Below the pieces are notes generated by a model. It worked only from the letters and a program-made list of their open reading frames with translations, ran no database searches and was not told the origin of the DNA. The position numbers and the translations under genes were made by a program. This document shows positions 40,167 through 64,000 of a DNA stretch of 64,000 bases, piece after piece; position 1 is the first letter of the stretch, and each line of letters starts with the position of its first letter. The DNA comes from Escherichia coli. Its GTDB lineage: Bacteria > Pseudomonadota > Gammaproteobacteria > Enterobacterales > Enterobacteriaceae. The DNA is taken from NCBI RefSeq assembly GCF_965641715.1, contig NZ_OZ282453.1, one strand, 5' to 3'.

Positions 40167-40173
40167 GCGTTCA

Positions 40174-40824
40174 TTAATTTGATTTATTCGCATCCATCAG
40201 CGCTTTTAACTCCTCCGGCGTAAACGGTGGTTTGCGTCGGTGCAACATCGCATGGCAATTAGGGCACACAGGAAGTAAATCATTAACTGGATCCAGCTGG
40301 TAATCCTCTTTAATGGCTGAAAGCGGCACCAGGTGATGCATATGGATAAAACCCTCAGCGATATCGCCATAGATCTTCACCAGATCAACGCCGCATACGT
40401 TGCACTGGCATCCGTGATGTTCGACTGCTTTCTCGCGAGCTTTTTTATCGCGTTCATAGCGGTTTACCGTCACCTTTATCGCCGCACCTTCAACGTAGGT
40501 CCCCTGCGACGGCAACTCATCCGGGAACAGAACATCGGCTATGGGAGCCGCAGCGGCTTTATCCTGATGAATATGAAATCCCTGATCTATAAGTAGCTTG
40601 ACGCATTTAGATTTTATTCCGCCGGTGAAATCCGCAGGGGTAAATTGCGTCCCCGTCATCAATGTCGCTGCGATGCCAGCAATCGCCTTCGAGGGGTAAC
40701 GTCGGCCATGATATTCAATCTCATACAACCGCGCAGGCTGGAACTGATGAGTTTCTCCCGCATCCCATAAATGGATAGCTTCGATGATATACCGCCGCGG
40801 AAGATGGTCGGGAAGTTTATTCAT
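40174..40824 (-). CDS. HNH endonuclease with N-terminal domain of unknown function
   Basis: 216-aa ORF with RBS; C-terminal HNH signature (CQCNVCG ... HMHHLVPLS ... PVCPNCHAMLH); convergent with nanS. Confidence 0.75.
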   Translation of the reverse strand: MNKLPDHLPRRYIIEAIHLWDAGETHQFQPARLYEIEYHGRRYPSKAIAGIAATLMTGTQFTPADFTGGIKSKCVKLLIDQGFHIHQDKAAAAPIADVLFPDELPSQGTYVEGAAIKVTVNRYERDKKAREKAVEHHGCQCNVCGVDLVKIYGDIAEGFIHMHHLVPLSAIKEDYQLDPVNDLLPVCPNCHAMLHRRKPPFTPEELKALMDANKSN

Positions 40825-41841
40825 GGGGAATATCCTTATACGTTCTCAGAACAGGCAGCAAAAAAACAAATGAGATCAAGGTAATATATCTTCACTTGCA
40901 GGCTTGAACAGCAGAAAATTTGCGAGCATGATCGCAATTATTTCACTGCCAGGGATATCAATGGCTTCCAGTAAATCGCTACAGCAGGCAATTGCCAATA
41001 TAAAAATCTGGCACAAGGGTGAACAGCGCACGCCGCATAAGCCATTGTTATTGCTATACGTATTAGCGGGATACCTGAATGGACATCCGCACCTTTTCGA
41101 TTATTGTAGTGGAACAGTCTACGAGGATGCAGTTCGAAGTGAGTAAGTAAAGGTTGCTGGAAACGATCAATGCCGCCATACAATGATATTTGAGGATCAA
41201 CAATGAGTAATAAAAACTACGAAAGTCACCGCAAAGCGATTGTTAGTAAAGGTATACCACCCGCTCTATTAAATAGGCTCACCAATTCGGATGTTCAGGT
41301 GATCAATACCTTCTTAACACGAGTGAGCAAACTGGAACTATCTCAACAAGAGAAAGACTGGATCATAAAAATCATCTCTATGGTTTAGAGAATTTCAGCC
41401 TTGTAGTGGTCAACAAAAACTGGTCACAATTTTAGATTTTTCCAGTATCTATTTTCCGATTCGTTCGGCGGTAATCCACCGATATATTCATGAGGCCGGG
41501 GTACACTACAATATTCAATAGACTGTTATTACATAGGCATCCTCGTTGAGTCTAACGTAACCAGCCACTGATATCCACTCGTACTTCAGGCTTCTGAAAA
41601 AATGTTCCATTGGGCTATTATCCCAGCAGTTTCCCCGGCGACTCATACTCTACTTGATCCGATAACACCACAGCACCTACCTGAACTGTCCGCTTGTGTA
41701 ATGGCTCCCCTGGTCGCCCTTTTAAGAGTCAAGACGTTATCGGGATGCTGTTGATTTCGTTGTAATGTATAAACTTCACGTCGCCACACCACACTTGATT
41801 TGGCTCTGTCACGGCGAACTGCCGTTCAGGGAGTCCTGACA

Positions 41842-42027
41842 TCAAGAGCGCGGTAGCTTTTTTCCTTTAGCCTCACGTATTTCGATTTGTTCCGGAATTA
41901 TCAGGGAGGTTTTTGGTGTTTTGCCCTTACGCTCATCACGCTGTTGTTTGCCCCATCTTGTTATCGAGGAAAAGCCGACATCCATAGCTTTGGCGGCATC
42001 TGCCACAGTATTGTTCGGGGTGAACAT
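41842..42027 (-). mobile_element. IS3-family (IS911-like) transposase OrfA remnant
   Basis: 61-aa fragment [33 protein letters not shown]...PEQIEIRE resembles the IS911/IS3 OrfA HTH region; no intact transposase or terminal repeats seen. Confidence 0.7.
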
Positions 42028-42301
42028 ATCCTCTGTTCAGGTGGACAAATTCAGTAAACCATTACATATGAGGCAGTGGCGGTAACACGGTCTCAACGAT
42101 ATGACGCTGCACACTACGATAAAAAAGAGGAGTTTAAAGATAAGATAAAGGGCGGCTTCAGGGGGATAAAATAGAATGTAATGCGCAGAAAACACGTATA
42201 AATTTCAAACAACGATGGTTAAAAAGTTAGCTGGGTCAACTCCCCCACACTGAGTCGGTGGAGGAGTATTCGTGATTAAGGGACGAAGGTTATAGACCGT
42301 G

Positions 42302-60901: not shown

Positions 60902-61216
60902 GGTGGGGACAGTCCTGTTCTCCCAAAATATCATGGTATTGATACGAGAGATTATGCCGTACAGGTACGACACGTTATGTCGTAGCAAAGGGGAGTGGAT
61001 AGAAAAAATGGCGAAGATGTGAAGAGTTGATTAATTCATTGAAACAAAATGAATTAATAATAATTTTGGGTAAAAGCGACGTCAAAATACGACATAACCT
61101 GTCGTATTTTGTTTTAGCCGGGAAAGGATAACTGCTACTTACTAAAATGATTTAGTGCTGAAAATATTTATAAGCCAATAAATAGACCGGTATTACGGAG
61201 TAACGCCCCGGCTATG

Positions 61217-62194
61217 TTAACGTGCCCGCTGTTTTATCGGCTCAAAAAACATATCCCAGAGATGTTCAGCCATACCCTCGTTAGTGAGCAAGGTATCCCT
61301 TGAGTAGCCAGGGCTGAAGACGCCCATTGATGGGCGAAAACCAAGGTTCTGGCCGTTATTGTCAATGGTTAAGATTTCATTGTAAGCATTGCCAATCACG
61401 CCATCCTGGCTATAACCAATATCGCCCATCCCCATATTTCGCCCGCTATTACGCCAGATTGCACATTGACCTACTTTGCTTCCCCCAATGTAGATCGCAC
61501 AAGTGAAGGCATCTGCGTCACGCTTATTAAAATCGACCTCTAACCCGGCATGGCGTTTTTTGAGTTCAGTCAGCGAGCCTTCAAAATAACGGGCGACATA
61601 TTCAAAACCGTCACGGCAGGCACGATCCTTATCAAGATCGGTAAAACGTTTTGGCAGTGAAAGGTTGCTCGAGCGTGGTGTAAAAACGGTATCCGTCGCC
61701 TGAAGCATTGGATTAGCCGGAGCTGGGGCGTGCACAATCTGTTGCGGCTTTTTCGCTTCCAAATTGGCAATAGCGCGGGAAACGGCATCGACAACCTGAA
61801 CATAGCCTTCATCATGGCTGGCAAATTTATCAATTGGCTTACCGTCAACAGTTGCCGCCAGAATGCGGCCAAACGGTAACATCTTCCACGCGCATTCTCT
61901 TAAGATCACCGGAATGACCACCGCCTCGCCCCGGCTATGTCGCTCCAGAGCGTTGGTCATTTCTACCTGATAGCAATAATCAGAAGCGATAAAATCACTG
62001 CTAATCAGCAACAGGATGATGTCTGCCTGAGAAAAGTAATGATCTATTTGGTTCTCAAACTCTTGTCCTGGAATGATGCGACGATCATGCCATGTCGTGA
62101 TCTTGCCCATGCGTTTCAGGGGGGAAAGATGCTTCTCAAGCTCATTGCGCAGAGCTTCGTCTGCATGAGAATAGGAAAAAACAAGAGAGGTCAT
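61217..62194 (-). CDS. TIR-domain protein with C-terminal domain of unknown function
   Basis: N-terminal TIR_2-like signature (VFSYSHADEALRNELEKHL ... ADIILLLISSDFIASDYCYQVEMTNALERH ... VIPVILREC); C-terminal ~200 aa unassigned. Confidence 0.75.
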   Translation of the reverse strand: MTSLVFSYSHADEALRNELEKHLSPLKRMGKITTWHDRRIIPGQEFENQIDHYFSQADIILLLISSDFIASDYCYQVEMTNALERHSRGEAVVIPVILRECAWKMLPFGRILAATVDGKPIDKFASHDEGYVQVVDAVSRAIANLEAKKPQQIVHAPAPANPMLQATDTVFTPRSSNLSLPKRFTDLDKDRACRDGFEYVARYFEGSLTELKKRHAGLEVDFNKRDADAFTCAIYIGGSKVGQCAIWRNSGRNMGMGDIGYSQDGVIGNAYNEILTIDNNGQNLGFRPSMGVFSPGYSRDTLLTNEGMAEHLWDMFFEPIKQRAR

Positions 62195-62410
62195 AGTGCG
62201 TAAGATGCTCCGATAGGGATGTGGAAAATACCGTTATTCTGCGCCGATAAGTGTAAAAGAGTTATCCCCCCTTACCACAAGGTATTGATGCGGAAATCAG
62301 TCCTACATCTTGGTATCGCTCTGACGTCAGGGTATGATCTCTAACAATTTCCCCGATTTTACACAACCTAGACACCAAACCAGGATCAGATGATTTTTTT
62401 GAGGTTTTAA

Positions 62411-64000
62411 TGGACAACGCTGAACAGCAATTTCTGAACGATCTGGATACTAAGTTCTGGAAAGCCGCAGACAAGCTACGCGCCAATATGGACGCAGCCA
62501 ACTACAAGCATGTGGTACTTGGGCTTATCTTTCTGAAGTATGTTTCAGATGCCTTTGACGCACGCCAGAAGGAACTGAAAGGACTGTTTGAAGACAAGTC
62601 CAACCCGGACAACATTTACGCGCTGTCTCGTGACGATTACGACACAGAAGAGGCGTACCAGCAGGCGATCGCAGAAGAGCTGGAAGTTCAGGATTACTAC
62701 ACTGAGAAAAACGTCTTCTGGGTACCCAAACTGGCTCGCTGGGAAACGCTTAAAACCAATGCTGCTCTACCTGTAGGGACGGTTCTGGGGAAAGACGATA
62801 GCGGCAAAGATATCGTCATGACGTCAGTATCGAAGCTGATTGATATCGCTCTGGATACTATCGAAAACAGCAACCCGAAACTGAAAAACATCCTTAACTG
62901 TATCGGACACTATCAGCTTGGTAACGACCTGCTAATTAGCCTGATTAACGTTTTCTCCGATACCAGTTTCAGCGAACCCAAATACAATGGCGTGAAGCTC
63001 AATTTGAAGAGCAAAGATATTCTCGGCCACGTTTACGAATACTTCCTTGGTCAGTTTGCACTGGCGGAAGGCAAACAGGGCGGCCAGTATTACACGCCGA
63101 AAAGCATCGTTACGCTGATTGTTGAAATGCTCCAGCCCTACAATGGCCGCGTGTATGACCCGGCGATGGGATCTGGCGGTTTCTTCGTTTCCAGCGATCG
63201 CTTTATCGAAGCACACGCTGATGAAAAGCATTACAACGCCGCTGAACAAAAACGCAATATCTCCGTTTACGGGCAGGAGTCCAACCCTACCACCTGGCGT
63301 CTGGCTGCGATGAATATGGTGATTCGCGGTATTGATTTTAACTTCGGTAAACAAAACGCCGATACGTTCCTGAACGACCAGCACCCGGATTTACGTGCCG
63401 ATTTTGTTATGGCGAACCCGCCATTCAACATGAAGGAGTGGTGGAACGCCAAGCTGGAAAACGACGTGCGCTGGAAATACGGCACGCCGCCTCAGGGCAA
63501 CGCCAACTTTGCGTGGATGCAGCACATGATCCACCACCTGGCGCCAAAAGGCTCGATGGCGCTGCTGCTGGCGAACGGTTCGATGAGCTCTAACACCAAC
63601 AACGAAGGCGAGATCCGCCGCAACCTGATCGAAGCCGATCTGGTCGAGTGCATGGTCGCGCTGCCAGGTCAGTTGTTTACCAACACCCAAATCCCGGCCT
63701 GTATCTGGTTCCTGACCAAAGACAAATCCGGCGGTAACGGCAAAGCACACCGTAAAGGCGAAGTGTTGTTTATCGACGCGCGTCAGATTGGCTTTATGAA
63801 AGACCGCGTGCTGCGTGATTTTAGCCGTGAAGATATCGCCAGAATTGCTGATATCTTCCACGCCTGGCAGACGGATAAAGGCTATGAAGACGAAGCTGGA
63901 TTCTGTTTCTCCGCAACGCTGGAAGATATCCAGAAAAACGACTTTGTGTTGACCCCTGGGCGCTATGTCGGTGCGGCCGAGCAAGACGAAGACGATGAGC
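62411..64000 (+). CDS. hsdM: Type I restriction-modification N6-adenine DNA methyltransferase (HsdM), 3'-truncated by window edge
   Basis: Open frame from ATG 62411 to window end; HsdM N-terminal domain, AdoMet motif (DPAMGSGGFF) and NPPF catalytic motif (VMANPPFN). Confidence 0.85.

Follow-up and report, generated by a model that had tools for sequence, protein, structure and literature searches.

Evidence for a composite genomic island with an ApsAB operon in the leuX-nanS interval of Escherichia coli

The DNA beyond nanS and its variability among strains

We analysed a stretch of 64,000 nucleotides from Escherichia coli (contig NZ_OZ282453.1 of assembly GCF_965641715.1), hereafter the window, with the focus on positions 40170-64000, the DNA that follows nanS. 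From mdtM to nanS, the window (1-40169) is collinear with K-12, in inverted orientation and at 97.5-98.4% identity by BLAST, in the order mdtM, yjiN-yjiL, yjiJ, kptA, iadA, hypT, iraD, uxuRBA, gntP, fimH-fimB and nanC-nanM-nanS. The last gene common to both, and the core-side flank of the island, is nanS (39186-40166, plus strand; 98.4% identity to K-12 up to 40169), and the nanS stop codon is followed by just 3 bp of further homology to K-12, which stops at 40169. From there on, K-12 matches are limited to two relics of about 125 bp (40796-40920 and 40981-41104) and traces of IS911. In our interpretation, a composite genomic island that arose by successive integrations fills the interval between the tRNA gene leuX and nanS, known as defence hotspot #37, and 40170-64000 represents the two thirds of it nearest to nanS. 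We put the probability of this reading at roughly 0.88.

A preliminary description of this DNA placed nucleases, a helicase operon, insertion sequence (IS) and integrase remnants, two toxin-antitoxin modules, CP4-type genes, a TIR protein and hsdM past nanS, and all of these were found. It further held that the gene order of K-12 is broken here. Homology to K-12 does end at 40169, but the nanS-distal DNA of K-12 is itself an accessory leuX island, the 41-kb KpLE2, which fills the leuX-nanS interval in that strain.

The first gene of the island is convergent with nanS and encodes an HNH endonuclease of 216 amino acids (40174-40824, minus strand). It matches Pfam HNH and, weakly, type IV restriction enzymes in PADLOC, and is not present in K-12; intact or decayed copies adjoin nanS in many E. 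coli. Beside it lies the N-terminal fragment of a phosphorothioate-DNA-binding restriction endonuclease (40961-41125, plus strand; 64% identity by tblastn to residues 1-54 of the enzyme of strain SaT040), a stretch that is a relic in K-12 and is annotated as partial in strain A30. The nanS-adjacent pair is widespread and variably decayed, with traces only in K-12. The phosphorothioate-dependent endonuclease occurs twice in this island type, as the 5' fragment at the nanS end and as a full gene next to the leuX integrase of SaT040 (SaT040 extract 43006-43884); the two copies have 64% amino acid identity and are mutually inverted. The K-12 homology blocks at window positions 40155-40169 and 40796-40810 overlap by 15 bp in K-12, and the 626-bp HNH segment of the window is bounded by an imperfect 15-bp repeat with 11 of 15 matches. 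This arrangement is consistent with loss of the HNH gene in the K-12 lineage by microhomology deletion. Relics of an IS3-family (IS911-like) transposase follow at 41402-42009, with 75-87% identity to pieces of K-12 IS911B; A30 has a frameshifted integrase-core pseudogene there.

To place this arrangement within the species, the segment was compared by megablast with 5,426 complete E. coli genomes. Only 43 of them contain 80% or more of 40000-64000 in one place. The segment is variable across E. coli, and its modules occur singly in 50 to 148 genomes: the apsAB module (42244-49404) in 148, the segment from the TIR gene to hsdM nearly whole in 52, and the spacer with the integrase relic in about 50. 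The exact combination of the window occurs in none. Other strains carry different DNA at the same locus. Fimbrial genes, among others, occupy it in the sequence type (ST) 38 strain and IS and Hha-type genes in isolate 02A16CRGN003, and in E67 a different cargo adjoins leuX directly. GI-leuX, a named island of ST131 (PMC4659465), carries an Eco31I-type system instead in EC958. The closest genome is A30, which is 99.0% identical and collinear over window positions 28001-61358. SaT040, which is of the ST131 type, shows 95.6% identity and remains collinear up to the end of the window save for two gaps, and ST131-type genomes are without 40222-42243, the segment with the HNH gene and the IS relics.

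These comparisons bear on an alternative in which E. coli ancestrally had this gene order past nanS as core synteny, K-12 having departed from it. Relics of the HNH gene and of the phosphorothioate restriction enzyme in very many genomes, K-12 included, favour it to the extent that the thin layer at 40170-41125 may be old and widespread. Beyond about 41.1 kb this alternative is refuted by the frequencies given above (43 genomes for the segment, 148 for apsAB, about 50 for the spacer and integrase relic), and K-12, ST38, E67, EC958 (PMC4659465) and 02A16CRGN003 all differ in content at the locus. We therefore regard it as extremely improbable. The genome comparison proposed in the preliminary description thus speaks for an accessory island, the segment not being conserved core synteny.

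Anchoring at leuX and relics of integration

The island has one boundary within the window, at 40169/40170 next to nanS. Its leuX side is seen outside the window, in the collinear relatives A30 and SaT040, where the islands run about 10-11 kb past the position of the window end and finish at a tyrosine (P4-type) integrase, the tRNA-Leu gene leuX and ahr. The leuX junction of both strains is the same as that of K-12. Intact integrases adjoin tRNA-Leu in A30 and SaT040; the window holds a decayed integrase only (50365-50740). A tRNA scan of the window found no tRNA, and an Rfam scan of the whole window returned no family at the gathering score. The gene leuX is the anchor of hotspot #37 (EcoSal review, PMC12707154), which is occupied in 97.3% of E. 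coli genomes, contains a defence system in 97.4% of the occupied cases and hosts 31 system types (Hochhauser et al. 2023, PMC10121019). The architecture put forward in the preliminary description, an integrative island at a leuX-type tRNA that has accreted defence cargo, is supported by this hotspot, by the island ends in A30 and SaT040 and by a relic attachment (att) site within the window.

The relic att site lies at 50767-50825 on the minus strand and was identified by BLAST and alignment. It comprises a degenerate leuX 3' end (GGTGCGGCCTTC-GCACCA, compared with AGTCCGGCCTTCGGCACCA in leuX), followed by the leuX terminator hairpin and conserved downstream bases. The stem of the hairpin shows a compensatory C/G exchange. 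When the leuX 3' end was searched as an ungapped 25-mer with up to three mismatches, no match was found in the window. The relic contains an indel, and only short-word BLAST of K-12 leuX with its downstream region recovered it at 50767-50805 on the minus strand (39 bp, 90% identity, E-value 1e-7). The search for an attachment site suggested in the preliminary description was in this way successful, with the site found inside the island. The window contains it a single time. A30 and SaT040 have the relic too, and it is oriented like leuX in these relatives.

Next to the relic, on its nanS side, lies the remnant of a tyrosine integrase C-terminus (50365-50559, minus strand), 45% identical at the amino acid level to the leuX integrases of A30 and SaT040 (their residues 333-418); the stretch 50582-50740 resembles the 5' ends of integrases of other genomes. 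Judged on their sequence, the relics at 50365-50825 indicate a probable older leuX element that was displaced by a second integration at the tRNA.

We also considered whether the whole segment could be a single element gained in one step. The window, A30 and the ST131-type genomes are collinear over nearly the entire arrangement, which means that it has travelled or been inherited as a block at least since their common ancestor. A single gain is nevertheless very unlikely, as the apsAB module is separated from the CP4-type element by a leuX-end relic and by a second integrase, likewise a relic and unrelated (the one with 45% identity), the apsAB module occurs alone in other islands and species, and A30 and the window carry different cargo beside the TIR gene.

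Several points weigh against a composite leuX island. By itself, the core of the att relic does not outscore the best random shuffles of the 24 kb, and the relic owes its significance to the 39-bp terminator match adjoining it and to the integrase relics. At the nanS end, a Smith-Waterman search for an att relic gave nothing above shuffled controls, which leaves the older element without a defined outer limit. The leuX anchoring of this strain is drawn from its relatives, since the window stops short of the distal island end with its tRNA and intact integrase. For the right end (61358-64000), no complete genome matches at 99% identity or more. Lastly, base composition is only mildly atypical. 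The guanine plus cytosine (GC) content is 46.3% in the island compared with 47.7% in the remaining window, and GC at third codon positions is 0.39-0.61 in island genes compared with 0.62-0.66 in mdtM, uxuB, gntP and iadA; the fim/nan neighbours (fimD and nanS) are as GC-poor as the island. A foreign origin thus finds weak support in base composition.

The ApsAB operon, the CP4-type genes and their cargo

The helicase operon of the preliminary description consists of two genes on the minus strand. The upstream gene, apsA (44530-49239), encodes a superfamily 2 (SF2) helicase fused to a PD-(D/E)xK nuclease, with 1569 amino acids from M13 in an open frame of 1581 amino acids that extends up to 49275. 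The downstream gene, apsB (42302-44533), overlaps it by 4 bp and encodes an Argonaute-like partner protein of 743 amino acids. Full length, the two products are 92.4% (ApsA) and 92.5% (ApsB) identical to those of the E. coli ST38 locus, which we retrieved and in which the motif positions equal those published for ApsAB (PMC11096173). ApsA contains the invariant SF2 motifs GTGFGKS, DELH, SAT and QAVGRVERR and a C-terminal E...D...DxK nuclease site (alignments of 22 to 49 homologues). In ApsB, the MID-like pattern Y-x3-K...QG...K and a C-terminal Asn (Y409, K413, Q431, G432, K489 and N743) are invariant in 28 homologues, and all are found in the window protein. Every key helicase, nuclease and MID-like residue of the prototype is thus retained, and the operon is an allelic variant of ST38 ApsAB by sequence.

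ApsAB was found in the tRNA-Leu island of ST38 E. coli (Zongo et al. 2024, Nat Commun, PMC11096173). In that work, it eliminates IncL, p15A, ColE1 and pMB1 plasmids, for which both proteins as well as the helicase and MID-like residues are needed, and it has no effect on eight phages. A variant from ST219 E. coli, also about 92% identical to the ST38 prototype, is active in plasmid elimination, and in ST38 the system drives chromosomal capture of blaOXA-48 (PMC11096173).

Database searches by themselves would have suggested a novel, uncharacterised defence system. Neither protein has a match in Pfam, NCBIfam, PADLOC 2.0 or a PDB sequence search, and a profile of the ApsA family against PDB was equally empty, though chains of DdmD and DdmE are deposited there. 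Matches to NERD are weak and confined to 4 of 22 homologues. The homologues form a small family (58 and 52 clusters) across Gammaproteobacteria, all annotated as hypothetical, and the accessions of the ST131 and A30 proteins gave no match in the text of papers. The 92% identity to a published and mutationally characterised system, together with the identical motif positions (PMC11096173), makes novelty of the operon scarcely credible.

A fold search of structural models returned DdmD as the nearest match of ApsA and DdmE as that of ApsB, the model of which has a PIWI-like RNase H core. The pairing typical of DdmDE, a helicase-nuclease with a catalytically inactive partner of prokaryotic Argonaute (pAgo) fold, is found here as well. 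These features of the ApsB model run contrary to the original description, and ApsAB and DdmDE may form one mechanistic family, though we consider this less likely than not. By structural analogy with DdmDE, ApsB likely binds a short 5'-phosphorylated guide, recognises plasmid DNA and hands it to the ApsA helicase-nuclease for degradation.

Seven distant loci retain the gene pair, and their surroundings are often those of defence or mobile elements. These are a Vibrio locus beside a divergent BrxR/WYL regulator, a Tn7-like transposon of Rheinheimera, a locus amid two Gabija-like pairs and a SIR2 gene, a metagenomic contig where VWA, PP2C, protein-kinase and ZorA-like genes are adjacent, a Xenorhabdus locus between IS elements, and loci in Oceanisphaera and Pseudomonas. 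A tblastn search for a degraded BrxR/WYL regulator upstream of apsA, as in Vibrio, found none. In E. coli, apsAB is located at leuX in A30, SaT040 and ST38, and in another island, next to gsp/yghD, in EC974. There (extract 21955-27797) it lies 11 bp behind co-oriented genes for a TerB-N protein, an ATPase and a DEAD/DEAH helicase (Shango-like), with AbiE genes adjoining. This setting indicates that the apsAB cassette, about 7.1 kb in size, is transferred as one unit from hotspot to hotspot.

Upstream of apsA lies an AT-rich spacer of about 1.1 kb (49276-50364, about 40% GC), found only in the approximately 50 genomes with this island type. It holds no open reading frame of 50 or more amino acids save two short frames at the apsA end (49205-49363 and 49260-49439), and presumably contains the promoter or regulatory region.

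Beyond the att relic, towards leuX, a CP4-type element begins at its distal end with an HTH_3 (Xre-type) regulator with an acidic C-terminal domain (50938-51744, minus strand; Pfam HTH_3 1.7e-13). Two toxin-antitoxin pairs follow on the same strand: a ParE/RelE toxin with a ribbon-helix-helix antitoxin (51850-52401; ParE_toxin 1e-15, RHH_1 4.5e-7), and CbtA with its antitoxin CbeA (YeeU), the latter within a block that also encodes DUF4942, RadC and DUF932 proteins (52454-55430; Pfam E-values 1e-44 to 1e-70). Next are a hypothetical protein of 317 amino acids without a family match (55667-56620, minus strand) and, on the plus strand, a YagK/YfjJ (Gp2-like) protein and an AlpA-type regulator (57214-58164; YagK_YfjJ_C 3e-38, Phage_AlpA 3e-10). 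The minus-strand block at 58367-60988 encodes a protein of 261 amino acids, a YeeP/YfjP-type GTPase (MMR_HSR1 4e-16) and a WYL-HTH regulator (PADLOC WYL 5e-17). The 261-residue protein (58367-59152) has a signal-peptide-like N-terminus and no family match, and its gene stands between those of the GTPase and AlpA; in CP4-44 of K-12 this position is taken by flu. The backbone set of GTPase, YfjJ/YagK, AlpA, DUF932, RadC, CbeA/CbtA and DUF4942 is present in full, with strong Pfam E-values.

At the junction of this backbone with the variable cargo lies a gene for a TIR-Y4lF protein of 325 amino acids (61217-62194, minus strand; Pfam TIR_2 2e-13), the homologues of which carry TIR_2 and PF27176 (Y4lF). 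A Thoeris system would be suggested by the PADLOC match to ThsB1 (3e-157 over the full protein) and by a presumed catalytic Glu in a YCYQVE motif, as read from the sequence. ThsA, of either the SIR2 or the Macro-SLOG type, was absent from all five contexts examined, namely the ST131-type island (the window together with the complete SaT040 island), E67, Serratia, Klebsiella and Moellerella. The gene instead accompanies the CP4-type backbone, which in Serratia, Klebsiella and Moellerella likewise has TIR-Y4lF where it meets the local cargo. The Thoeris reading was accordingly rejected as improbable, and we treat TIR-Y4lF as a gene of the CP4-type element family. It is conceivable, at odds that we would put well short of even, that it is a conserved, self-contained module of such elements and not a stray part of Thoeris. 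It could then have a stand-alone TIR (NADase) defence or addiction function.

E67 has a 77%-identical copy of the TIR gene, oriented divergently to a type I system that is unrelated. Two E. coli islands have the TIR gene in divergent orientation to unrelated type I hsdM genes, the products of which are 29% identical. The match of A30 to the window breaks off at 61358, where 142 bp of the 3' end of the TIR gene have been included, and A30 carries a DEAD/DEAH helicase and a different type I system from there on. Since A30 keeps the last 142 bp of the gene (61217-61358; A30 extract 33234-33375), the swap point lies inside it, and because the A30 replacement breaks in its 3' end, TIR-Y4lF could mark a site of cargo-swap recombination.

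The cargo in the window begins with hsdM (62410-64000, plus strand; Pfam HsdM_N and N6_Mtase 4e-115), which is cut by the window end. Its product is 95.8% identical to HsdM of SaT040, where hsdS, a DUF4268 gene, hsdR, the full phosphorothioate-dependent endonuclease gene and the integrase gene come next; in the strain studied, hsdS and hsdR would be located past position 64000. The preliminary description placed the hsd genes of K-12 on the far side of mdtM and not beyond nanS. The hsdM of the window is not that of EcoKI, and a relocated K-12 hsd locus was rejected at 27% amino acid identity between the two HsdM proteins.

Elsewhere in the window, two inserts that are not in K-12 interrupt the shared part. 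One of 2.9 kb (4786-7677, about 34% GC), between yjiL/DUF3343 and yjiK, encodes a pentapeptide-repeat protein of 750 amino acids. The other, of 5.6 kb (9713-15367), between yjiJ and kptA, encodes the inverse autotransporter IatD of 1746 amino acids. They are separated by yjiK-yjiJ (7678-9712), a divergent allele block with 81% identity to K-12, compared with 97-98% in the flanks.

Proposed assembly and comparison with known systems

At the level of sequence, we regard the position, boundaries and variability of the island, its att and integrase relics, the identity of its modules and the conservation of catalytic residues as established. We hypothesize that at least two elements with P4-type integrases entered the leuX 3' end in succession. 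The older one would have been pushed away from the tRNA, leaving a decayed att site and integrase (50365-50825) with the ApsAB operon (42302-49239) as its cargo; on its nanS side would lie IS3 debris and a still older layer, made up of the HNH nuclease and the fragment of the phosphorothioate restriction enzyme. The younger element would extend from 50938 to leuX beyond the window and comprise the conserved CP4-type backbone, including TIR-Y4lF, and a variable cargo slot between the TIR gene and the integrase, filled here by a type I restriction-modification system. Counted from nanS, we infer four layers: (i) the HNH nuclease and phosphorothioate-dependent restriction endonuclease, (ii) remains of IS3 elements, (iii) the apsAB element, whose integrase is dead, and (iv) the CP4-type element.

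Cargo would be exchanged by recombination within the island, at the hinge between backbone and cargo. Such swaps may account for the other helicase and type I module that stand in A30 in place of the TIR and type I module, for the ST131 islands without the HNH-IS segment and for the replacement of nearly all of this DNA by KpLE2 in K-12. Considering the known roles of their families, the toxin-antitoxin pairs would stabilise the element, and the restriction and ApsAB modules would protect host and island against incoming DNA.

Both the leuX hotspot and ApsAB are already published; what is new is this exact mosaic, absent from the 5,426 complete genomes. The island is a clear instance of current understanding and does not change it. 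About 24 kb of DNA, much of it annotated as hypothetical or unassigned, can now be described as an ordered, layered leuX island with named parts, and the internal att relic offers direct evidence that this hotspot grows by serial integration at one tRNA. Pfam, NCBIfam and PADLOC 2.0 still miss ApsAB completely, and its presence in this strain and in 148 of the complete genomes, ST131-type genomes included, bears on which lineages keep resistance plasmids.

The CP4-type element can be compared with CP4-6, CP4-44 and CP4-57 of K-12, which have the matching backbone set (YeeS corresponding to RadC, YeeU/YeeV to CbeA/CbtA) and a P4-type integrase at a tRNA. Relative to these, the element of the window adds TIR-Y4lF, the WYL regulator, the ParE/ribbon-helix-helix pair and a slot for defence cargo, and is without flu (antigen 43).

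For the apsAB module, the nearest system is ApsAB of ST38, which shares the two-gene order, the 4-bp overlap, the key residues and the location in a tRNA-Leu island, and differs in its orientation relative to leuX, which is opposite. DdmDE, known from Vibrio cholerae and Lactobacillus casei, combines the helicase-nuclease DdmD with the long-C pAgo DdmE and has the same two-protein logic, gene order and class of target, that is plasmids. Sequence similarity between DdmDE and ApsAB is not detectable, as the PADLOC and PDB searches were empty, and ApsA is about 400 amino acids longer than DdmD, with an extra N-terminal domain and insertions.

The island as a whole resembles the other occupants of hotspot #37, namely KpLE2 of K-12, GI-leuX of ST131 and the tRNA-Leu island of ST38, all of which lie in the same interval from leuX/ahr to nanS/fim. 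It shares with them an integrase on the tRNA side, as seen in its closest relatives, a strain-variable cargo rich in restriction-modification and other defence systems, and the lack of obvious self-transfer machinery. Individual examples differ from the window in their parts: A30 to the right of 61358, the ST131-type islands (95.6% identical) by being without 40222-42243, and GI-leuX of EC958 by its Eco31I-type system.

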